A stretch of DNA of 64,000 bases from Terriglobia bacterium. Its GTDB lineage: Bacteria > Acidobacteriota > Polarisedimenticolia > Polarisedimenticolales > JAIQFR01. Each line of letters begins with the position of its first letter. Position 1 is the stretch's first letter. The stretch spans positions 128,092 through 192,091 of the forward strand of contig CAWBOP010000013.1 of assembly GCA_963790465.1 (NCBI GenBank), read 5' to 3'. Position numbers and translations under genes: made by a program. Positions 3,607 through 64,000 of this stretch are shown piece by piece. The notes beneath the pieces were generated by a model, which ran no database searches, was not told the DNA's origin, and worked only from the letters and a program-made list of their open reading frames with translations.

Positions 3607-5171
3607 TCGGCCCGTGGGTTCTGCTGATCTCGATCCTCGCGGCGCTCGCCGGGGGAGGGGTGGTCGGGTGGTTGCTCAACAACCGACTCGGGAGGAGTAG
3701 CCTCGAGGCGGTCCGGCGCCGGTCCGAGGAGGTCCTCCACAACGCTCGCCGGGAGGCGGAGAAGGCGAAGAGGACCGCGCTCGTGGAGGCGCGGGAAGAG
3801 ATTCTCCAGCAGCGGGACAAGGCGGACAACGATCTTCGCTCGAGGAAGGGACAGGTCCAGAAACGCGAGCGCGATCTGAAGACCCAGCGGCAGGCGGTGC
3901 AGGACCTCGATGCGGATCTCGCCCGGCAGCGCGAGGCGCTCCAGGAGCGGGAAGGGGGGCTCGCCGCCAGGGACGCCGAACTCCTGGTCGCCCGGGAAGA
4001 GACGGAGAAGCTGCTCCACCAGGGGTTCCTGGAGCTCGAGCGGATCTCCGGGATGACCCGCGAGGAGGCGAAGCGGCAGATCCTCGCCAATCTCAAGGTG
4101 GAGGCGCGCTACGAGGCGGCGGCGCTCATCAAGGAGATCAAGGACGAGGCGCAGCGGACCGCCGACGCGGACGCCGTGAAGATCATCTCCCTCGCCGTCG
4201 AACGCGCGGCCTCGGATTTCTCGGTGGCGCGCACGGTCACGCAGTTCCCCCTGCCGGAGGGGAGCCAGGTCAAGGGACGGATCATCGGCCACGAGGGGAA
4301 GAACATCCGGGCGTTCGAGGCCGCCACGGGCATCCAGCTCCTCATCGACGAGGAGGCGAGCACCGTGACGCTGTCCGGGTTCAACCCGGTGCGCCGCGAG
4401 GTGGCTCGCCGCGTGCTCGAAGCCCTGATCAAGGACGGAAACATCCACCCGCGCCGGATCGAGGATCTGGAGCGACGCAACCGGAAGAAGCTCGACGACG
4501 AGATGCGGCGGACGGGGGAGCAGGTTCTCAAGGAGCTGGGGATCCGCGAGGTCCACCAGGAAATGGTCAAGCTGCTCGGGCGGCTCCTGTACCGGACCTC
4601 CTACGGGCAGAACGTGTTGATGCACTCGAAGGAGGTCTCGATCCTCACCGGGATGATGGCGACGGAGCTTCGCCTCGACGAGAAGCTCGCCCGCCGCGCC
4701 GGGTTGTTCCACGACATCGGCAAGGCGGTGGACTACGAGCGCGAGGGGACGCACCCCGAGATCGGCGCCGAGGTGGCGAAGAAGTACGGCGAGCCCGACG
4801 TGGTGGTCAACGCCATCGCGTCCCACCACGAGGACTGCGAGGTCATCTCGCCGATCTCCGTCCTGGTGTCGGCCGCGGACTCGCTCTCGGGGGCGCGCCC
4901 CGGCGCCCGCCGGAAGAGCGTCGCCGAGTACATCAAGCGGATCGAGCAGCTCGAGGGGCTCGCCAACTCGATGAAGGGGGTGGAGCAGTCGTACGCGATC
5001 CAGGCGGGGCGCGAGATCCGCGTGATCGCCCGCTCCGAGGAACTGGACGACGCGAAGGTCGATCTTCTCGCCTCGGAGCTGGCGTCGCGCATCGAGTCCG
5101 AGATGGACTATCCCGGCAAGATCAAGGTGACCGTGATCCGGGAGGTGCGCGCCATCGAGTACGCCCGCTGA
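3603..5171 (+). CDS. rny: Ribonuclease Y
   Basis: 522 aa. N-terminal TM helix, long coiled-coil, KH domain (GRIIGHEGKNIRAFEAATG) and HD domain (HSKEV...LFHDIGK). Confidence 0.95.
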   Translation: MIGPWVLLISILAALAGGGVVGWLLNNRLGRSSLEAVRRRSEEVLHNARREAEKAKRTALVEAREEILQQRDKADNDLRSRKGQVQKRERDLKTQRQAVQDLDADLARQREALQEREGGLAARDAELLVAREETEKLLHQGFLELERISGMTREEAKRQILANLKVEARYEAAALIKEIKDEAQRTADADAVKIISLAVERAASDFSVARTVTQFPLPEGSQVKGRIIGHEGKNIRAFEAATGIQLLIDEEASTVTLSGFNPVRREVARRVLEALIKDGNIHPRRIEDLERRNRKKLDDEMRRTGEQVLKELGIREVHQEMVKLLGRLLYRTSYGQNVLMHSKEVSILTGMMATELRLDEKLARRAGLFHDIGKAVDYEREGTHPEIGAEVAKKYGEPDVVVNAIASHHEDCEVISPISVLVSAADSLSGARPGARRKSVAEYIKRIEQLEGLANSMKGVEQSYAIQAGREIRVIARSEELDDAKVDLLASELASRIESEMDYPGKIKVTVIREVRAIEYAR

Positions 5172-6060: not shown

Positions 6061-6893
6061 GCGAATCGGTCCCCGCCACGAGCCACTTCCGCGTCGCGTT
6101 CCGCGTGCTGCCGCCGGCGAGGCGGGAGGGGATCGCCGCGGTGTATGCCTTTTGCCGCCGCGCCGACGACGCCGTGGACGAGGCGGCCGGCCCCGATGAC
6201 GCGCGCGCGCGCCTTGCCAAAGTTCGACGGCAGCTCGACGACGCGTTCGCCCTCCGGGCGGACGACCCCTCGGTCGCGCCGCTCGTCCGCACGATCGCGG
6301 CGTTCTCTCTTCCACGCAAGCCGTTCGACGACCTCCTCGAGGGGGTGACCTGGGACCTCGAAGGGCGGCGATATGCCGACGCGGGAGAGCTCACCGAGTA
6401 TTGCAGGCGCGTGGCATCCACGGTCGGCCTGCTGTGTGTCCGCGTGTTCGGCTGCGAGGGGGCCGGCGCGGACGCTTACGCCGTGGAGCTCGGCGTCGCG
6501 CTCCAGTGGACGAACATCCTCCGCGACGTCGGCGAGGACCTGGCGCGAGGGAGGGTGTATCTCCCCGCCGACGCCCTCGGGCGACACGGACTTTCCGAGG
6601 AGGGGCTGGGTCGCCGGGACGCGGCGGCCCGGCGGGGGATGGATGCGCTCGTGAGGGAGCAGGCGGCGTACGCGAGGAAGCGGTTCGAGGGGGCGGATGC
6701 GCTTCTCCCGGACGCGGACCGGCGGCGCCTGCTCGCCGCGAGAATCATGACCGCCGTGTACCGCGCGCTGCTTGCCAAGGTCGAGCGCGCCGGTTCCGGC
6801 GTTCTCGACCATTCGCCTCGGGTGCCGGCGGTCCGGCGCGGGGTGCTCGCTCTCGGGCTCCTGCTGGGCGACCGGCTGGGACGGCGCGCGTGA
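6045..6893 (+). CDS. hpnD: Presqualene diphosphate synthase HpnD
   Basis: Internal ATG at 6045 in the 5400..6893 frame (MGGAVSESVPATSHFRVAFRVLPPARREGIAAVYAFCRRADDAVDE). Squalene/phytoene synthase family. Overlaps the hpnC end by 16 nt. Confidence 0.85.
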   Translation: MGGAVSESVPATSHFRVAFRVLPPARREGIAAVYAFCRRADDAVDEAAGPDDARARLAKVRRQLDDAFALRADDPSVAPLVRTIAAFSLPRKPFDDLLEGVTWDLEGRRYADAGELTEYCRRVASTVGLLCVRVFGCEGAGADAYAVELGVALQWTNILRDVGEDLARGRVYLPADALGRHGLSEEGLGRRDAAARRGMDALVREQAAYARKRFEGADALLPDADRRRLLAARIMTAVYRALLAKVERAGSGVLDHSPRVPAVRRGVLALGLLLGDRLGRRA

Positions 6894-11417: not shown

Positions 11418-14154
11418 ATGATCAACGCGATCCTGACCAAGATCGTCGGCTCGAAGAACGACCGCACCCTCAAGCGGATGCGGGCCAATGTCGAGCGGAT
11501 CAACGCCCTGGAGCCCGGGATCCGCGCCCTGTCGGACGAGGGGCTCCGGGCGAAGAAGGACGAGTTCCGGGAGCGCTTCGGTCGGGGCGAGACCCTGGAC
11601 GAACTCCTTCCCGAGGCGTTCGCCGTCGTGCGAGAGGCCGGTCGCCGCGTCCTGGAGATGCGGCACTTCGACGTCCAGCTCGTCGGCGGGATGGTGCTCC
11701 ACGAGGGGAAGATCGCCGAGATGAAGACCGGCGAGGGGAAGACGCTCGTCGCCACGCTCCCCGTTTACCTGAACGCCCTCGCGAGCAAGGGGGTCCACGT
11801 CGTCACGGTGAACGACTACCTGGCCCGGCGCGACTCGGAGTGGATGGGCCGGCTCTACCGGTTTCTCGGGATGACCGTTGGCTGCATCCAGCACGATCTG
11901 TCCGACCCGGAGCGGCAGGAGGCCTACGGCGCCGACATCACCTACGGGACCAACAACGAGTTCGGGTTCGACTACCTCCGCGACAACATGAAGTTCTCGC
12001 TGGACGTCCATGGTCCAGCGGGGGCACGACTTCGCCATCGTGGACGAGGTGGACTCGATCCTGATCGACGAGGCGCGGACCCCGCTGATCATCAGCGGGC
12101 CGGCCGAGGAGTCCACCGATCTCTACTTCCGGATCGACCGGATCGTACCGAAGCTCCAGAAGGGGGCGTCATCCAGGGCGGGAAGGAGTACGAGGCGGAG
12201 CAGACCGGCGACTACATCGTGGACGAGAAGGCCCGCACGGTCACGCTCACCGACGGGGGCGTGGAGCACTGCCAGCAGCTGCTCGGCATCGACAACCTGT
12301 ACGACCCCGCGCACATGGAGGTCCTCCACCACGTCAACCAGGCCTTGAAGGCCCACGTCCTGTTCCGGCGGGACGTGGACTACATGATCAAGGACGGCGA
12401 GGTGGTCATCGTCGACGAGTTCACCGGGCGGCTGATGCCCGGGCGGCGCTGGAGCGACGGCCTGCACCAGGCGGTGGAGGCGAAGGAAGGGGTGAAGATC
12501 GAGCGGGAGAACCAGACGCTCGCCACCATCACCTTCCAGAACTACTTCCGCATGTACGGGAAGCTCGCGGGCATGACCGGCACCGCCGACACCGAGGCGG
12601 TGGAGTTCGACAAGATCTACAAGCTCGAGGTGGTCGTCATTCCGCCGAACCGGCCGCTCATCCGGCTCGAGAACCCGGATGTCGTCTACCGGACCCAGGA
12701 CGAGAAGTGGAACGCCGTCGTCGAGGAGATCGCCGAGTGCCAGAAGCGCGGCCAGCCGGTGCTGGTCGGCACCGTCTCGATCGAGAAGTCCGAGAAGATC
12801 TCGACGATGCTCCGCCGCAAGGGGATCAAGCACGTCGTCCTCAACGCGAAGTACCACGAGATGGAGGCGGAGATCGTCGCCCAGGCCGGGCGGCTCGACG
12901 CGGTCACGATCGCGACCAACATGGCGGGCCGCGGGACCGACATCCTGCTCGGCGGCAACTCCGAGTACCTCGCGAGGCAGGAGCTGATCCTCAAGGGGCT
13001 GAAGCCGGGGGAGACGCCGAAGGAGGAGTGGGACGCGGCGTACGCCGAGGCTCTCGAGCGCTCGCGGGTCGCCTGCCGGGTCGAGCACGAGCAGGTCGTG
13101 GCGCTCGGCGGCCTCCACATCATCGGGACCGAGCGGCACGAGTCGAGGCGGATCGACAACCAGTTGCGCGGACGCGCCGGCCGGCAGGGGGACCCGGGGT
13201 CCTCGCGCTTCTACCTCGCGCTCGACGACGACCTGATGCGGATCTTCGCCAACGAGTTCGTCCAGCGGGTGATGAACCGGGTCTGGACGGAGGACGGCGT
13301 TCCGATCGAATCGGGGATGGTCAGCCGCGCCATCGAGAAGGCGCAGAAGCGGGTCGAGGAGCGCAACTTCGAGATCCGCAAGCACCTTCTCGAGTACGAC
13401 GACGTCAACAACATGCAGCGGAACGAGATCTACGCCCTGCGCCGCGACCTGCTCGCCGGGAAGGAACAGACCGAGTACGTCTTGGGCAAGGGGCGGGAGA
13501 TCCTGCAGGTGCTCGTGGACGACTACCTCGCCGTTCACAAGAGCCCGATGGAGTGGGAGGTCGAGCCGTTCCGGCAACAGGTCCTCCACTACTTCGGCAC
13601 GGAGCCCGAGCGGGAGGGGATCGATCTCCGGCAACTCGAGCTCGACGCGGTCGGCGACGCGGTGTGGGAAAAGCTCGAAGCTCGCTATGCCGCCAAGGAA
13701 GCCAAGGTCGGCAAGGAGCTGATGCGCCAGTACGAGCGGCACATCCTGCTCCAGATCATCGACGGATCCTGGAAGGACCACCTGCTAGGAATGGACCACC
13801 TGAAGGACGGGATCGGCCTGAGGGCTTACGGTCAGCGCGACCCGCTCGTCGAATTCAAGCGGGAGTCGTTCGACATGTTCTCGACGATGAAGGAGCGGAT
13901 CGAGAACGACGCGGTGCGCTTCCTGTTCCTCCTCGATCCGATGACCGACGAGGACCGGCGGCGCGAGGAGGAGCGCCGGCGGCGCGAGCAGGAAGCGGTG
14001 TTCTCCGCCGCGTCGCGCTCGGCGGCCGGGCGTGACCGCGCGCGGCGGCATCGAGACGGTGGCCCGCAAGACCGCCAAGGTCGGCCGGAACGATCCTTGC
14101 CCGTGCGGCTCGGGGAAGAAGTACAAGAAGTGCCACGGGGCGAACGAGGCGTGA
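11418..14154 (+). CDS. secA: Preprotein translocase ATPase SecA (three frame breaks)
   Basis: Collinear SecA sequence throughout. The segment [34 protein letters not shown] sits in another frame (12010-12165) and the main frame resumes at about 12170. The C-terminal zinc motif [19 protein letters not shown] (stop 14152-14154) is in a +1 frame relative to the body, with the break near 14000-14030. Confidence 0.9.
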
Positions 14155-15071: not shown

Positions 15072-16115
15072 ATGGCGATCCAGGTCATCGAATGGAAGGA
15101 CGACACCGGACGGGAGATGGTGCACCGATTCGAGCCGGGCGGCGAGCTGAAGCTCGGCGCGCAGCTCGTCGTGCTCGAGAACCAGTGGGCGGTGTTCTTC
15201 CGCGACGGCCGGGCGCTCGACACGTTCACGACAGGGCGCCACACGCTCACCACCGGCAACGTGCCGCTCCTCGGCCGGCTGATCGGGGCGCCGTTCGGCG
15301 GGACGTCGCCGTTTCGCGCCGACGTGTACTTCGTGAGCCGAAAGGTGTTCACCGACTTGAAGTGGGGCACGAAGGACCCGGTGGCGTTCCGGGACGCGGA
15401 GCTCGCGATGGTGCGTCTTCGGGCGCACGGTGTCTTCGCGGCCCGGGTGGTGGCCGCGCAGATGTTCGTGAACCAGGTCGTCGGGAGCATGGGGACGTAC
15501 GCCACCGACGAGATCGAAGGGTATCTGAGGGACCTGATCGTCGCGCGGCTCAACGACGTGCTGGGCGAGACGGTGAAGACGCTGTTCGACCTCCCGAAGC
15601 GTTACGACGAGCTGGCCGAGGCGCTCAAGGGGCGCGTCGCCGGAGACTTCGCCAAGTACGGGCTCGAGCTGACGGATTTCTTCATCAACGCGATCACGCC
15701 GCCGGAGGACGTCCAGAAGGTGATCGACGACCGGTCGGGGATGGCGGCGGCGGGAGACCCGAACGCCTACCTGCGGTTCAAGGCCGCGCGCGCGATGGGG
15801 GACGCGGCCGCGTCGCAGGCGGGCGGGGCCGCGGCCGGAACCGCCGCGGCGGGGATGGGGCTCGGGGTGGGCGCGGGGCTGGGGATGATGATCCCGGGGA
15901 TGCTGCAGTCATCGGCGAAGGCGGAGGCGCCGAACGTGCCGGCGGCGCCGGCGGCGGCCACTTCCCCCTGCGCCGCTTGCGGCGCGGCTTTGCCGGCTGG
16001 CGCGAAGTTCTGTCCGGGCTGCGGCGCGAAACTCGCCGCGGGGTTCTGCACGGCGTGTGGCGTCGCGTTGCCCGCCGTCGCAAAATTCTGTCCGGGCTGC
16101 GGCGCCAAGCAGTAA
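15072..16115 (+). CDS. SPFH/band-7-like (virion-core-like, YdjI-type) protein with C-terminal double zinc ribbon
   Basis: [34 protein letters not shown]... matches the N-terminus of the SPFH-like COG4260 family. The C-terminus carries CAACG...FCPGCGAKL and CTACG...FCPGCGAKQ. Confidence 0.85.
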
Positions 16116-19766: not shown

Positions 19767-19926
19767 GGGCAACTCCCGCCGGAAGATATCTCTCGCGGAC
19801 GAGGGCGGTCAAGCCGATCGCCGTAGCACCAGGCGACCCGGAGGCCGAGCCAGCGGAGTTCGAGAAGAGCGGGAGCCGTTGCGGAAAAGGAAGGGAGTGA
19901 CGGGAGGGAGTAACGGCGACTCGAAG

Positions 19927-19965
19927 GAACAGACAGGAGGAACAGACAGGAGGAAGACGGAGGAG
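19927..19965. repeat. Tandem 13-mer (GAACAGACAGGAG x2 plus a degenerate third copy) inside a purine-rich tract
   Basis: Copies at 19927-19939 and 19940-19952, then gaagacggaggag. The surrounding region (about 19880-20010) is almost all A/G on the + strand. AGAGATC x2 at 19981-19994. Confidence 0.7.
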
Positions 19966-20130
19966 TGGTGGAAAGGAACAAGAGATCAGAGATCAAGGAG
20001 CGAGAAAAAAGTGTACTCTTGTGCCTGACGTGTGGTATGCATGTTCGACAGCGGAGAGCGGTCGAGATGTCACTTGGGTGATTATATTGTAAAACAGCTC
20101 CCGGAGAGAGGGGCTGCGGCCCGGCATCCG

Positions 20131-60379: not shown

Positions 60380-61400
60380 CCATGCCGCTGAGCTCCGGCG
60401 CGCTGCGGATCCCGCGCTGCGCCGCGCGCTGCTGCGCTGGTACGACGGGCACCGCCGCGCGCTGCCGTGGCGCGGCGAGCGCGACCCGTACCGGGTCTGG
60501 CTCTCCGAGGTGATGCTCCAGCAGACCCGGGTCGCCACCGCGACGCCGTACTACCACGCCTTCCTGGAGCGCTTCCCGACGCTCGGATCGCTGGCCCGCG
60601 CCCGCGAGGCGGACGTGCTCGCCGCCTGGGCGGGGCTCGGCTACTACCGTCGCGCCCGCCAGCTGCGCGAGGCGGCGCGCGCGGTGGTGCGCGAGCACGG
60701 CGGGCGCGTGCCCGACGAGCCCGCGGCCTTCGCCCGGCTGCCCGGGCGTCGGCCGCTACACGGCCGGGGCGGTGCTCTCCATCGCCTTCGACCGCGCCGC
60801 TGCCCGCGCTGGACGGCAACGTGGCGCGCGTGCTGTCGCGGCTCGCGCGCGCTGCCGGCCGCGCTGCGCGAGCCCGGCGGCGCGCGGCGCTGTGGGCGCT
60901 GGCCGCCGCGCTGGTCCCGGCGCGCCGGCCCGGCGACTGGAACCAGGCGCTGATGGAGCTGGGCGCCACCGTCTGCACGCCGCGCGCCCCGCGCTGCGGC
61001 GAGCTGCCCGGTGTCGCCGCCGCTGCCGCGCGCTGGCGCTCGGGCGCGTGGCGGCGTTCCCGCCGGTGCCCGCGCGCCGGGCGGGGGAGCAGGTGCGGCA
61101 GGCGGTCGCGCTCATCGAGCGGCGGGGCCGCGTGCTGGTGACGCGCCGCGAGGGCCCGCTGCTCGCCGGGCTGTGGGAGCCGCCCGGCGTCGAGGTGGCG
61201 CCGCGCCGGTCCGCGCGCCGGGCGCTGGCCGCGCGGCTCGCCGAGCTCGGCCTGCGCGCGCGGCTCGCGCCGGCGGGGACGACCGTCCGCCACGCGATCA
61301 CGCACCGGCTCATCGCGGCGGAGGTCTGGCGCGGCGAGCTGGCCGTTCCCCTGCCGCACATGGTGGGGAAGGCACGAGAATTTCGCCAACAGTACGACGA
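60380..61400 (+). CDS. mutY: A/G-specific adenine DNA glycosylase MutY (frame breaks; boundaries approximate)
   Basis: LSEVMLQQTRV, GLGYYRRAR, LPGVGRYTAGAV, a Cys-rich [4Fe-4S] loop and a NUDIX-like C-terminal domain. The open frame runs on into the repeat array to 61500. Confidence 0.8.
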
Positions 61401-61426
61401 AGACGTTGAAGATGAATCTGAAGAAA

Positions 61427-61531
61427 TAGAAATGGGCACTGGGCAATGGGCACTGGGCACTGGGAAGAATGGTCAGGGGTCAGTGGTTAGTGGGCAGTGA
61501 GGAAAACGTCAATCGTCAAGCGTCATTCATT
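61427..61531 (+). repeat. Array of ~15 consecutive 7-nt units in one register (TAGAAAT, GGGCAYT x4, GGGAAGA, ATGGTCA, GGGGTCA, GTGGTTA, GTGGGCA, GTGAGGA, AAACGTC, AATCGTC, AAGCGTC, ...)
   Basis: Read directly from the sequence. The heptad register is preserved while the unit sequence drifts. Confidence 0.85.
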
Positions 61532-61532
61532 T

Positions 61533-61599
61533 CCCCTCCTTTGTAAGGAGGGGAAGGGGAGGTGAGAGCCTCTACCCCACCTCACCTTACAAAGGGGAG
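61533..61599. repeat. ~70-nt palindromic element, copy 1
   Basis: cccctcctttgtaaggagg...ggaggtgagagcctctaccccacctcac...cttacaaaggggag. Second copy at 62903-62979. Confidence 0.8.
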
Positions 61600-61678
61600 A
61601 TAAATCAGTAAGAAGTGACAGCAAGGACATGGGTTTTGGAAGAAGGTTTTGCTATACTCCTGAGGCACGGAGGGTCCC

Positions 61679-61890
61679 ATGAAAGAACAACTCACCGCCG
61701 TTTTCGAGAAGGTTCCCGAAGGATATATCGGATTTGTCGAGGAATTGCCGGGGCGGAGCGTGGGGGACACGCTGAAGAACCCCGCGCCAACCTTCAGGAA
61801 GCCGTAAGCTTGGTGCTTGAAGCGAACCGGGCATTGGCTGAAGAAACGCTTGGCGACAAGACCAGCGCTCGTTGGGAGCGAAGATCATGA
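61679..61890 (+). CDS. HicB-like (UPF0150) antitoxin-family protein, one frame break
   Basis: MKEQLTAVFEKVPEGYIGFVEELPG.., then ..EEPRANLQEAVSLVLEANRALAEE in the adjacent frame. GGAGGG SD. TATACT box at 61653-61658. Confidence 0.65.
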
Positions 61891-62125
61891 CGTTCTATAA
61901 TTTTGAAATTGTTGTTGAGAAAGAATCAGAGGACGGAGGTTACTCGGCCTACAGTCCTACGTTACCGGGCTGCCACAGTAATGGCGGCACGGTGTTGAAG
62001 AAGCAAATCGTAATATCCGCGAAGCGATTCAGCAGCACATTCAATCTCTACTCGCTCATGGCCAGCCGATTCCCCAGAACGAAAAACTTGTACACGTGGA
62101 GGAGCTGACCGTTGGAGTTCCATAA
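61887..62125 (+). CDS. hicB: HicB antitoxin, one frame break
   Basis: MTFYNFEIVVEKESEDGGYSAYSPTLPGCHSNG.., then ..EEANRNIREAIQQHIQSLLAHGQPIPQNEKLVHVEELTVGVP in the adjacent frame. The TAATG overlaps hicA. Confidence 0.75.
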
Positions 62126-62353
62126 TGGCACGGATGCCACAGGTCACGCCTGCCGACCTTGTGCGTTTTCTAAAATCTCAAGGATTCACAGAAGACCGAC
62201 AGTCCGGGAGTCATCTGACACTCTGGCATGAGAGTCGGAAGGTGTCGGTGACTATTCCGATGCATACAGGCTGTCGTTCTCGGCCGCGGCCTCGCAGTAC
62301 GTATTCTAAAAGATGCGGGGTTTTCAGTTGAAGAGTTCTTGCGTCTTCGCTGA
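62125..62353 (+). CDS. hicA: HicA mRNA-interferase toxin, one frame break
   Basis: MPQVTPADLVRFLKSQGFTEDRQSGSHLTLWHE..VSVTIPMHTG, then VVLGRGLAVRILKDAGFSVEEFLRLR in the adjacent frame. Confidence 0.75.
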
Positions 62354-62386
62354 AGCGGCTTCCAGACAAGAGCGCTGAAGGTGGCA

Positions 62387-62424
62387 GGGCAATGCCCAGT
62401 GACGAGTGACCAATAACGAATAAC
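62387..62424. repeat. GGGCAATGCCC near-palindrome followed by heptads (CAGTGAC, GAGTGAC, CAATAAC, GAATAAC)
   Basis: Read directly from the sequence. GAGTGAC recurs at 62993-62999. Confidence 0.75.
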
Positions 62425-62437
62425 GGAGACACTTGCC

Positions 62438-62587
62438 ATGAAACAGGGCTATCGGTTGATCCTTGTGGACAAAGACGGTGTGATGGTCTCGGAATTCCAA
62501 GTGACCGAAGGCGACCTGGCTGATCCGGCGGCGTTCGTGGCGGCGCTCAAGGAGTCGATCGAGCAGGTGGAAGAGGAAGAACCCTAG
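62438..62587 (+). CDS. Mini-ORF, 49 aa, acidic C-terminus (hypothetical)
   Basis: Below the ORF-track cutoff. MKQGYRLILVDKDGVMVSEFQVTEGDLADPAAFVAALKESIEQVEEEEP. GGAGA 8 nt upstream. Its TAG stop is the first unit of the next heptad array. Confidence 0.4.
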   Translation: MKQGYRLILVDKDGVMVSEFQVTEGDLADPAAFVAALKESIEQVEEEEP

Positions 62588-62668
62588 AAATGGGCATTGG
62601 GCACTGGGCAATGGGCATTGGGCATTGAGAAGAATGCGAGCGATGAGCGATGAGTGATGAGGAGGAGA
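62585..62668 (+). repeat. Array of 12 in-register 7-nt units (TAGAAAT, GGGCAYT x5, GAGAAGA, ATGCGAG, CGATGAG x2, TGATGAG, GAGGAGA)
   Basis: Read directly from the sequence. The last unit, GAGGAGA, serves as the SD of the following mini-ORF. Confidence 0.85.
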
Positions 62669-62672
62669 CTAC

Positions 62673-62843
62673 ATGCCGCAAAAGAAGAAGAGCATCACAC
62701 CCAAGAAGGGCGGAGGCAAGTCAAAGGGCCAACAGGTCCGCGAGACGCAGCGGCCGCGCAGCGCGCGGCAAGGCCAGGGCCCGGCGGATAGGCAGAAGGA
62801 CCAACAGCAACGCGCCACCGGAAAGAGGTCGGGCGGAAACTAA
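62673..62843 (+). CDS. Mini-ORF, 56 aa, extremely basic (hypothetical)
   Basis: MPQKKKSITPKKGGGKSKGQQVRETQRPRSARQGQGPADRQKDQQQRATGKRSGGN. Strong SD. Its TAA stop is the first unit of the next heptad array. Confidence 0.45.
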   Translation: MPQKKKSITPKKGGGKSKGQQVRETQRPRSARQGQGPADRQKDQQQRATGKRSGGN

Positions 62844-62897
62844 AAATGGGCACTGGGCAATGGGCAAGGGACAAACGTCACTGGTCATTAGTCATTC
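62841..62897 (+). repeat. Array of 8 in-register 7-nt units (TAAAAAT, GGGCACT, GGGCAAT, GGGCAAG, GGACAAA, CGTCACT, GGTCATT, AGTCATT)
   Basis: Read directly from the sequence. Confidence 0.85.
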
Positions 62898-62902
62898 GTA
62901 AA

Positions 62903-62979
62903 GCCCCTCCTTTGTAAGGAGGGATGACGGGGAGGTAGAGATCTCTACCCCACCTCACCTCCCCCTTACAAAGGGGAGG
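62903..62979. repeat. ~70-nt palindromic element, copy 2
   Basis: gcccctcctttgtaaggagg...ggtagagatctctacc (perfect 16-nt palindrome)...cccccttacaaaggggagg. Confidence 0.8.
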
Positions 62980-62985
62980 AAGGCT

Positions 62986-63037
62986 GGTTGACGAGTGACT
63001 AGAAACGGGCACTGGGCACTAGGCAATGGGCAATGCC
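62986..63037 (+). repeat. Array of in-register 7-nt units (GGTTGAC, GAGTGAC, TAGAAAC, GGGCACT x2, AGGCAAT, GGGCAAT)
   Basis: Read directly from the sequence. Confidence 0.85.
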
Positions 63038-63070
63038 TGACCGGACGGGACTAGGGGGACGAAGAAGAGA

Positions 63071-63814
63071 TTAGGACGTTGAATGCATCGCCGAGTGCAG
63101 TCTGTGCGAGCTTGATTCTCTGTGGCTCATGAACTCTGTGATGGCGTCTGCGGCGGCTGTTGGGTTGGTGTACATGACGTAGTGGCGGCCCTCAATCATG
63201 CGGACGCGGACGGACGGTCGAACGCGTACAATCTCCTCGACATTGCGCTGTGGGACGATCCGGTCCCGCGTGCCGGCAAGACAGAGCACGGGACACGGCA
63301 GGGCCCCCCGTAAGTATTCTCGTGCATCCACGTCTATGAGCGCCGCCGCGCGGGCTGCCGCCGCCCGGGCACTTGTCCGCCTCCAGGTTTCTTTCTTGGC
63401 CCTGCGAAATTGATCGTTCTGTCCTCGGGCCAGCCACAGAGGAATGCGACGTCCACTCCGCACCGCCCAGGCCACCGGTGGGACTGCGGCAAACCGCAGG
63501 CGCGAAAAAATCGGGCGGGGTGAGCGGAGGAAGGTCGCAGACAGGATAGCCCCTTGGACCCTGGTCGGCTCGGCGGCAGCGAGCATGAGCGCCAGCGGAC
63601 CGGAAAACGACGAGCCCAGCACGTAGAAATCGGACAGGCCTGCCAGCTCTCCCCGGACTATATCCAACAGATGTGGGTACTCATTGGCCCCGGTTGAAGG
63701 AAAGCAAATCACATGCGGTCGTACCCAATGGGGCAGGGCTGCCAGCAGCGGTCGAAAAAACACATCGGTCCCGTCGAGACCTGGGAGGAGCACTAACGTC
63801 GTTGGCTTCTGCAT
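63071..63814 (-). CDS. Alpha/beta-fold hydrolase
   Basis: 247 aa. LVLLPGLDGT and the nucleophile elbow GSSFSG. Intact frame. Confidence 0.75.
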   Translation of the reverse strand: MQKPTTLVLLPGLDGTDVFFRPLLAALPHWVRPHVICFPSTGANEYPHLLDIVRGELAGLSDFYVLGSSFSGPLALMLAAAEPTRVQGAILSATFLRSPRPIFSRLRFAAVPPVAWAVRSGRRIPLWLARGQNDQFRRAKKETWRRTSARAAAARAAALIDVDAREYLRGALPCPVLCLAGTRDRIVPQRNVEEIVRVRPSVRVRMIEGRHYVMYTNPTAAADAITEFMSHRESSSHRLHSAMHSTS

Positions 63815-63934
63815 GTGGGTTGGTCAAAAAAAAGAATCAGCGGAGAAACGTGTTTCGCGGCATTATTTCGGGGAATGATCAGACTTCATTTTCTATGATG
63901 ATATACAACGTGTCGGAGGATGGGTCAAGGAGGC

Positions 63935-64000
63935 CAGAAACGGGCACTGGGCATTGAGAGACAGGCAATGGGCATATAGAAACAGGCACTGGGCAATGGG
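63935..64000 (+). repeat. Heptad array (CAGAAAC, GGGCACT, GGGCATT, GAGAGAC, AGGCAAT, GGGCATA, TAGAAAC, AGGCACT, GGGCAAT, ...), truncated by window end
   Basis: Read directly from the sequence. Confidence 0.85.

Follow-up and report, generated by a model that had tools for sequence, protein, structure and literature searches.

Tandem G-rich heptanucleotide arrays at gene boundaries in a Nitrospira-like fragment most likely misjoined to an acidobacterial contig

The window analyzed here is a stretch of 64,000 nt of contig CAWBOP010000013.1, assigned to a Terriglobia bacterium, and the elements in question are the tandem arrays of 7-nt repeats (heptads) in its last 2.6 kb. All coordinates given without a contig label are positions in this window; the last 2.6 kb is referred to as the tail and positions 1 to approximately 61355 as the body. 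The arrays are real, heritable, clade-restricted, hypervariable between strains, and polar. They are probably G-rich heptanucleotide simple-sequence repeats (SSRs) of the short tandemly repeated repetitive (STRR) type, belonging to the quadruplex-forming GGGNATC/GGGGAYT class and residing in a fragment of a Nitrospira-clade genome that was most likely misjoined to an acidobacterial contig; slippage would generate the units, and their capacity to form a G-quadruplex (G4) would retain them at gene boundaries. Their function is probably that of a gene-boundary structure. Of the new details, the grammar of four-unit blocks and the one free position within the unit are the most useful.

Anatomy of the arrays

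Tandem Repeats Finder (TRF) reported period-7 arrays at 61433-61464, 61470-61499, 61507-61525, 62591-62627, 62638-62661, 62845-62867, and 63007-63035, together with an array of 21-nt (3 x 7) period at 63936-63995. The consensus of the unit was TGGGCAC or TGGGCAT with a match of 90-92%, i.e., a G-tract of at least three with a short loop in tandem, which is the type of unit that defines the repeat class of Rehm et al. The three-unit pattern GGGCAHTGGGCAHTGGGCA, scanned with at most two mismatches, matched 11 times against an expectation of 0.01 from shuffles, and all matches lay on the + strand within 61434-63032. Thus, the five + strand arrays reported in the original prediction were borne out by both TRF and the pattern scan, and cutting the DNA into 7-mers reproduced the units that had been read there.

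Array 1 (61427-61531, + strand) opens with the head TAGAAAT, which is followed by four GGGCAHT units plus GGG (61434-61464), a 9-nt spacer, a GGTCAGN run (61470-61499), an 8-nt spacer, and a CGTCAWT run (61507-61525). Array 2 (62585-62668, + strand) occupies an intercistronic spacer and carries the head TAGAAAT, five GGGCAHT units (62592-62626), the 9-nt spacer GAGAAGAAT, and a GAGYGAT run, after which comes the Shine-Dalgarno sequence GGAGGAGA. Array 3 (62841-62897, + strand) starts with TAAAAAT and three GGGCAHT units plus GGG, and then continues as a run of CGTCACT, GGTCATT, and AGTCATT. In array 4 (62986-63037, + strand), GAGTGAC units precede the head TAGAAAC (63000) and four GGGCAHT units, one of which is degenerate; this array lies 36 nt past the stop of a hydrolase gene, on the antisense strand, and is 86% identical to positions 6820-6869 of L121, a Nitrospira-like contig that serves as the main reference below. 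Array 5 (63935-64000, + strand), which is cut by the window end, consists of the heads CAGAAAC, GAGAGAC, and TAGAAAC, each with two GGGCAHT units behind it (the 21-nt period), and is located on the antisense strand, 120 nt upstream of the hydrolase start. The G-runs of the tail comprise 4, 5, 3, 4, 2, 2, and 2 units.

An additional heptad block at 62387-62424 has its G-rich strand on the - strand, 14 nt upstream of the open reading frame (ORF) that starts at 62438, and its L121 counterpart is found at 12214-12242. This block and array 2 form an inverted repeat with arms of 25-32 nt that are 72-84% complementary. The heptad blocks at 62390-62421 and 62596-62627 flank an ORF of 49 aa, which pairing within the transcript could enclose.

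Between unlike heptad runs lie purine-rich spacers 9 and 8 nt long, e.g., GGGAAGAAT and GAGGAAAA, which shift homologous positions by +2 and +1 nt; the register is therefore not strictly kept. TRF accordingly splits each array into two or three runs, and the assertion that the 7-nt phase is never broken did not hold.

Block grammar and unit number

Listing all runs with their flanks revealed an explicit grammar. Each block begins with a 7-nt purine-rich head of the consensus TRRARRY (TAGAAAT, TAAAAAT, TAGAAAC, TGAAAGC, GAGAGAC, etc.), whose first three bases frequently double as the stop codon that ends the preceding gene. The head is followed by GGGCANT units, most frequently four, in which position 6 is free and the other six positions are fixed, and these lead to a purine-rich spacer, GRGAAGA (GGGAAGA, GAGAAGA, or GAAAAGA), or to another head and block. 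Beyond the spacer, other heptad runs (GGTCAGN, CGTCAWT, or GAGTGAY) or a long palindrome may follow. Long arrays are assembled from such blocks, and periods of 34-35 nt and 43 nt therefore also appear in the TRF output for L121.

A run length of four units was found in 15 of the 28 runs of L121 and a second related contig, L124, a sharp mode that agrees with the four-unit preference of the Rehm class. When only perfect GGG tracts were counted in the same two contigs, three tracts were present in 11 runs and at least four in 10 runs, and the four-unit preference was weaker. In TRF-defined arrays, the detection of which is blind to position within the unit, position 6 had an entropy of 1.82 bits (A 27, T 24, C 18, G 5) versus 0.18-0.70 bits at the other six positions, and the base at position 6 was shared by neighboring units slightly more often than expected (0.44 vs 0.30). 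Blocks that come in fours with a stop-bearing head, and units with six fixed positions and one free position, both constrain what STRR-type repeats do.

Placement relative to genes

The 16 kb of L121 that were analyzed (GC 57.8%) contain 21 merged arrays that are nearly all intergenic. In 6 of the 13 intergenic regions of L121, a G-run begins within 6 nt (4-6 nt) downstream of a sense-strand stop, whereas random placement and orientation over 20,000 trials gave a mean of 0.91 and a maximum of 5 (P<5e-5). The three stop-adjoining arrays of the window are orthologues of three of these six L121 cases, and their head units TAGAAAT (61427), TAGAAAT (62585), and TAAAAAT (62841) provide the upstream ORFs with in-frame stops; the earlier observation that the first unit supplies the upstream stop codon was correct, except that it had counted two cases and there are three.

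Most of the other arrays have their G-rich strand in antisense orientation upstream of a start codon, as at 63935 (hydrolase) and 62387 (49-aa ORF) in the window and at 4743, 9814, and 12215 in L121. In both placements, the polarity is the same, with the 5' head end of the G-rich strand directed toward the nearest ORF. The arrays in the window and L121 thus adopt the placements published for the Rehm class, namely sense after stops and antisense upstream of genes. This polarity bears on the proposal that all arrays lie on the + strand regardless of gene orientation, which is true of the five named arrays but not of the block at 62387-62424, and which gene direction largely explains. The five named arrays are all on the + strand because the genes at 61365-62843 are all on the + strand and the head lies next to the ORF; the two that flank the - strand hydrolase fit the antisense placements, and their + strand position is therefore explained as well.

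The genes that adjoin arrays belong to toxin-antitoxin, housekeeping, and hypothetical categories. Two other readings were tried and rejected. A coding reading fails because seven is not divisible by three, and small ORFs crossing the arrays in either direction are by-products. Phase-variation (contingency) SSRs, in which a repeat within an ORF or between promoter elements switches expression through its unit number, were dismissed in view of arrays that begin after stops or more than 100 nt upstream of starts.

Distribution and variation among relatives

Arrays are present at sites orthologous to the tail in four contigs, L121, L122, L123, and L124, with GC contents of 56-59%, which come from other samples and assemblies. 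The density of period-7 arrays per kb amounts to 1.5 in the tail (8% of bases), 1.3 in L121, 1.9 in L122, and 0.7 in L124. However, it is only 0-0.1 in other Nitrospira, i.e., N. moscoviensis (L128), CR1.3 (L126), YTPLAS18 (L131), L125, L252, L253, and L254, a comparison set in which no hydrolase homologue exceeds 76% identity to that of the window. The arrays thus mark a narrow Nitrospira clade, relatives of which are contained in GCA_016307145.1, SRR14001272, and ERZ27264500. An excess of period-7 repeats beyond the tail, on which the significance of the arrays had been made to depend, exists in L121, L122, and L124 but not in the body. The short heptad runs pointed out earlier in the high-GC part, at 2613 and 19981, are background: the body holds 0.08 arrays per kb versus 1.5 in the tail, and period 7 accounts for 5 of 68 TRF rows, fewer than periods 9, 10, or 12. 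At 19892-19995, the body has a purine-rich non-coding stretch with 13-nt tandem repeats (AGGAACAGACAGG x2.4 and AGGGAGTAACGGG x1.9), inside which the 'AGAGATC x2' run is located, with no heptad array.

Alignments of three orthologous sites showed near-identical coding flanks between which the unit number, unit type, and spacer differ. Array 1 measures 105 nt in the window versus approximately 170 nt in L121, and L124 carries GAGTGAY units in place of the GGGCAHT units of the other contigs. The units thus vary at conserved loci between close relatives, as they do in the Rehm class, and, as far as the alignments indicate, this variation is the dynamics expected of SSRs.

A scan for tandem GGGCAHT, with one genome per species, yielded at least 120 loci, and 108 of the 120 listed belong to filamentous cyanobacteria (including Nostoc, Calothrix, Microcoleus, and Tolypothrix). 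The description of the arrays as STRR-like is supported by these more than 100 filamentous cyanobacterial loci and by a placement like that reported in PMC4692102. Among the matches listed, the remaining loci stem from Bacteroidota, Acidobacteriota, Gemmataceae (Planctomycetota), an actinomycetotal metagenome-assembled genome (MAG), a 'Mycobacterium' contig, and an unclassified bacterium, and several of the listed loci contain further heptad arrays. Run lengths in cyanobacteria are broad among the matches listed, with 40 runs of three units, 41 of four, and 22 of five. The GGGCAHT heptamer is known from at least five phyla. The GGGCATT arrays of a Gemmataceae MAG (L017 265-352) and an Acidobacteriota MAG (L002 6827-6862) lie antisense and directly upstream of a start codon, and the former is succeeded by its own inverted copy, which creates a long hairpin. 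Viral contigs scanned for the heptamer gave 26 scattered matches and no sign of a phage vehicle; in one of them (L276), GGTCAxT-type units adjoin GGGCAHT.

Origin of the tail

The body has a GC content of approximately 69% and the tail one of 56-60%, and the two meet at 61355-61365 in what is probably a chimeric join. The GC fraction falls at approximately 61360 from 0.79 to 0.56-0.63. On the body side, MutY is cut, with its NUDIX_4 match ending at model position 80 of 113 (approximately nt 61342); on the tail side, homology to L121 begins at approximately 61365, and only about 21 codons of a 181-aa gene are kept. The hydrolase of the tail shares 94% and 91% protein identity with the metagenomic proteins P0001 and P0002, respectively, and all its named homologues are from Nitrospira (CR1.3 66%, YTPLAS18 61%, and N. 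moscoviensis 56%). Like L122, L123, and L124, the contig L121, which carries the 94% relative, is syntenic with the tail; the nucleotide identities to L121 are 89% for the hydrolase (approximately 89% across L121-L124) and 81% for a HicB-like gene; overall, the tail is approximately 80-89% identical to Nitrospira-like contigs. The taxonomy of the body was decided by GuaB (IMP dehydrogenase), which shares 89% identity with the enzyme of an Acidobacteriia/Terriglobia bacterium and 80-81% with those of Polarisedimenticolaceae and Sulfotelmatobacter. An HdrA-like protein was considered as a further taxonomic marker of the body and found uninformative.

A body protein and the tail hydrolase each have an exact copy on record for the same NCBI/ENA contig of 192,102 bp; the junction thus belongs to the public assembly and was not made by windowing. 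No tRNA, integrase, or direct repeat was found at the junction, and no tRNA anywhere in the window. A cross-phylum chimeric contig, which is most likely a misassembly, appears to be the most economical reading. In the public 192-kb contig, acidobacterial DNA seems to have been fused to a piece of a Nitrospira genome, and any bin that includes it would be contaminated. The novelty originally attributed to the arrays as repeats of a high-GC lineage disappears with this reading, since it arose from the fusion of an acidobacterial body with a Nitrospira-like tail of 56-60% GC, joined at a point that truncates genes on both sides.

Predicted structure and proposed function

Four GGG tracts at 4-nt spacing match the canonical G4 motif, and folding in ViennaRNA with G4 energies placed a quadruplex in the predicted minimum-energy fold of arrays 2 and 3, with a gain of approximately 1.5 kcal/mol. 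The Watson-Crick folding energies of the arrays equal those of shuffles. A terminator scan of the tail found 2 hairpin-plus-U terminators versus 2.8 expected, none of them at arrays, and the reading of the arrays as intrinsic (hairpin plus U-tract) terminators was rejected on account of the shuffle-like folds and the lack of a terminator excess. Rfam gave no family at the gathering score in the whole window, and the only sub-threshold matches were spurious miRNA-like ones to palindromes.

We propose that units are gained and lost through slippage and block duplication and that four G-tracts at 4-nt spacing may fold into a G4 immediately downstream of the stop codon, either in non-template DNA or in RNA, whether nascent or mature. 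This capacity would cause blocks to be retained at gene boundaries, where the quadruplex could pause or end transcription or define transcript ends, protect the 3' end and stabilize the upstream mRNA, or uncouple cistrons. In a segment without canonical hairpin-plus-U terminators, a quadruplex block may thereby take the role of a repetitive extragenic palindromic (REP) element or a hairpin terminator.

Several observations weigh against this proposal. Four perfect GGG tracts are present in only about half of the G-runs of L121 and L124, the predicted G4 gain is small, and total folding energies do not depart from those of shuffles. Conservation at the loop bases C4, A5, and T7 matches that of the G-tracts, which a quadruplex alone does not require, and it thus favors a sequence-specific partner or a biased copying process. 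The arrays are dispensable, since sister Nitrospira with homologous hydrolase loci lack them, and a role in regulation was not found for the repeats studied by Rehm et al. (PMC4692102). As for the host, the chimera is deduced from gene truncation, composition, and taxonomy, with the contig seen only up to 64000.

Alternative explanations

The arrays may instead be of neutral or selfish origin, a rival that must be taken seriously and is regarded as possible although not probable. Here, a clade-specific mutational process, either heptamer slippage or a self-copying gene-end cassette with its own stop codon, fills intergenic DNA, and selection only clears coding sequence. The hypervariability between close strains, the absence of arrays from sister Nitrospira that possess homologous hydrolase loci, and the fact that the published class is without a function found all fit such an origin. 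So does the sharing of position 6 by neighboring units somewhat above expectation (0.44 vs 0.30). Internal spacer heads, moreover, start with TGA, TAA, or TAG where no ORF ends, and the stop triplet thus seems to be part of the module. However, variation is focused on one of seven positions, whereas neutral decay would spread evenly; the mode at four units is sharp; and placement 4-6 nt after sense-strand stops departs from chance (P<5e-5), although an insertion preference could mimic this last bias. The conservation of C4, A5, and T7 alongside the G-tract, with position 6 free, is what would be expected if the arrays were binding sites for a sequence-specific DNA- or RNA-binding protein, in which TGGGCA every 7 nt plus one free base recruits or titrates a factor at gene boundaries and the quadruplex is incidental. 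The occurrence of the identical heptamer in Cyanobacteria, Bacteroidota, Acidobacteriota, Planctomycetota, and an actinomycetotal MAG is in line with this idea, and RNA-binding proteins (S1, Csp, CsrA) were proposed by MacGregor for TAACTGA heptamers (PMC4679880). Nevertheless, the factor is hypothetical, a 7-nt spacing sets successive sites on different faces of duplex DNA, and the four-unit preference is a prediction of the quadruplex; binding sites are therefore judged unlikely. A bolder and equally doubtful reading treats the arrays as copies of a modular gene-end cassette, with four TGGGCA-N units between a stop-bearing purine-rich head and a tail that is likewise purine-rich, that recently spread to many 3' gene ends in one Nitrospira clade and acts as a quadruplex-based or factor-bound terminator or insulator in place of hairpin terminators. 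Because the same heptamer occurs in filamentous cyanobacteria, Bacteroidota, Acidobacteriota, and Planctomycetota, a shared, horizontally transferable machinery that generates or reads it may exist. If this were true, STRR sequences would finally have a function.

Two further alternatives concern the DNA that carries the arrays. That both halves are on one public 192-kb contig, and that GGGCAHT arrays occur in some high-GC MAGs of Acidobacteriota (L002), Vicinamibacteraceae (L034), Gemmataceae (L017), and Actinomycetota (L105), would suit a tail that is a genuine horizontally acquired island in an acidobacterial genome, in which case the heptads would truly reside in a high-GC organism. Such an island is very unlikely, given that a gene is truncated on either side of a junction devoid of tRNA, integrase, or direct repeat, that the tail retains a Nitrospira composition and approximately 80-89% nucleotide identity to Nitrospira-like contigs, that the assembly contains indel errors, and that the body shows no heptad excess. 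The frameshifted genes of the window do suggest an error-prone assembly; however, the notion that the arrays are an assembly artefact or chance low-complexity sequence has a negligible probability and is already refuted by the orthologous arrays in four independent assemblies from other samples, in addition to the 11 motif matches versus 0.01 expected.

Genes and palindromes of the tail

The genes between the junction and array 3 are all on the + strand. The last approximately 21 codons of a lipoprotein-like Nitrospira gene (61365-61429) end in the stop TAG at 61427-61429, inside the head of array 1; the truncated ORF reads ...KTLKMNLKK*, and the right frame of the window gives ...ENFANSTTKTLKMNLKK*, versus ...AQNFANGTQTKTLKLNLKRQ* at the end of the 181-aa gene of L121. 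It is followed by a frameshifted HicB/UPF0150-like antitoxin gene (61679-61890), which is 81% identical in nucleotide sequence to the intact L121 gene at 15409-15630 and differs from it by one 1-nt and one 3-nt deletion. A second frameshifted HicB-like antitoxin gene (61887-62126) and a frameshifted HicA toxin gene (62125-62353) were recognized from stitched translations (PF15919, 7.5e-13, and PF07927, 4.1e-13, respectively). Next come the 49-aa ORF with an acidic C-terminus (62438-62587), whose TAG stop forms the opening triplet of the array 2 head, and a Lys/Arg/Gln-rich ORF of 56 aa (62673-62843), whose TAA stop opens the head of array 3 in the same way. Neither of these two mini-ORFs has a Pfam match. 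Both are 80% identical in nucleotide sequence to L121; the 49-aa ORF is approximately 80% identical to L121/L122 and 87% to L124, and the small-ORF region as a whole is conserved at about 80-87% nucleotide identity in related Nitrospira-like contigs.

The Shine-Dalgarno sequence GGAGGAGA of the 62673 ORF had been taken for the last unit of array 2. Its L121 counterpart, AAGGAGAC, stands at equal spacing to the ATG with non-heptad sequence upstream; the Shine-Dalgarno sequence is thus conserved where no heptad run precedes it and is independent of the array. The BioH-like alpha/beta hydrolase (63071-63814, - strand) is the only intact sizeable gene of the tail and serves as its taxonomic anchor. 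Frameshifts extend across 60400-61360, where MutY is spread over three frames, and across 61679-62353, where they affect both HicB-like genes and HicA. They suggest an indel-prone (long-read?) assembly or, alternatively, pseudogenes. In L121, a 54-nt (18-codon) tandem repeat is located inside two separate genes (6233-6579 and 15860-15983); it indicates a repetitive protein family unrelated to the heptads.

Two REPIN-like palindromes occur directly after arrays 1 and 3, at 61531-61600 (fold -40.4 kcal/mol, z -4.1) and 62903-62980 (fold -46.3 kcal/mol, z -4.5). They are repeat copies of 70-78 nt, each half of which has its own hairpin, CCTCCCCTTACAAAGGGGAGG. A metagenome scan located the half-site CTACCCCACCT(N2-9)CCTTACAAAGGGGAG on more than 120 contigs of 40-66% GC with diverse other heptads, and GGGCAHT arrays were not found on these contigs; the palindrome is therefore far more widespread than the arrays. 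Many of the palindrome-bearing contigs (L135-L249) have period-7 arrays of unrelated units, often as adjacent inverted pairs with the potential to form long hairpins, such as TCAAAGG/CTTTGAC (L179), GTTCAKA/TGAACTA (L185 and L239), AAATTCG/TTTCGAA (L231), and AGTGATG/CACTCAT (L181).

Comparison with known repeat systems

The closest published counterpart is the class of G-rich heptamers with the units GGGNATC in Xanthomonas and GGGGA(C/T)T in Nostoc PCC 7120 (Rehm et al. 2015, PLoS One, PMC4692102). Those repeats are over-represented in intergenic regions, lie close to the 5'-neighboring ORF in either orientation, prefer four units, and are found either in sense orientation within 50 bp behind a stop or in antisense orientation upstream; they vary extensively in length and sequence among close relatives (PMC4692102). 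Most are transcribed, and transcript starts or stops are commoner at G4-capable repeats than at control repeats; quadruplex formation was measured by circular dichroism, and a function was not identified (PMC4692102). The arrays of the window have in common with this class a 7-nt unit with a G3-4 tract and a short loop containing one variable base, an intergenic location, inverted pairs, number and sequence that vary at the same loci in close relatives, and no apparent link to gene functions. They differ in the unit, GGGCANT, and in the host, a Nitrospira clade, in their explicit block grammar of a stop-bearing purine-rich head, about four units, and a purine-rich spacer, and in being chained to non-G-rich heptad runs (CGTCAWT, GAGTGAY) and long palindromes. 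Quadruplex formation, furthermore, is measured for the Rehm units but only predicted for GGGCANT. In every property tested, the window arrays match the published class.

The STRR heptanucleotide sequences of filamentous/heterocystous cyanobacteria were reportedly described by Mazel et al. in 1990. STRR sequences are 7-bp repeats of unknown function, for which an effect on transcript stability or translational coupling has been considered possible (PMC2670836). Tandem 7-nt units in dispersed intergenic arrays are shared between the two systems, and the GGGCAHT unit itself is found in cyanobacteria as well. However, the present arrays have a host in Nitrospirota with 57% GC and Nitrospira-like flanking genes rather than a cyanobacterium, the classical STRR1-3 consensus units are other sequences, and runs in the window clade peak at four units, whereas those of cyanobacterial GGGCAHT are broad in length.

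TAACTGA heptamer repeats are patchily distributed across Beggiatoaceae, Cyanobacteria, and Bacteroidetes, and a role in translation initiation was proposed for them (MacGregor 2015, PMC4679880). Both systems consist of intergenic heptamer direct repeats at ORF boundaries with a patchy cross-phylum spread that includes Cyanobacteria and Bacteroidota; however, the TAACTGA unit is not G-rich and is mostly found a few nt upstream of starts, whereas GGGCANT arrays are mainly found just after stops. With the palindromes of the REP, REPIN, and bacterial interspersed mosaic element (BIME) type, the arrays share a location at 3' gene ends and in intercistronic gaps and the proposed roles of mRNA 3'-end protection and cistron decoupling. 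REPs, however, are single or paired hairpins mobilized by REP-associated tyrosine transposases (RAYTs), in contrast to heptad arrays, which are direct repeats without a significant Watson-Crick fold.

A full-text literature search returned no description of such heptamer repeats in Nitrospira. High-GC hosts as such are not new, since Xanthomonas has been published and the MAGs L017, L034, and L105 have GC contents of 66-70%. The arrays described here extend the host range of G-rich, quadruplex-prone heptamers to a clade of nitrite-oxidizing bacteria.

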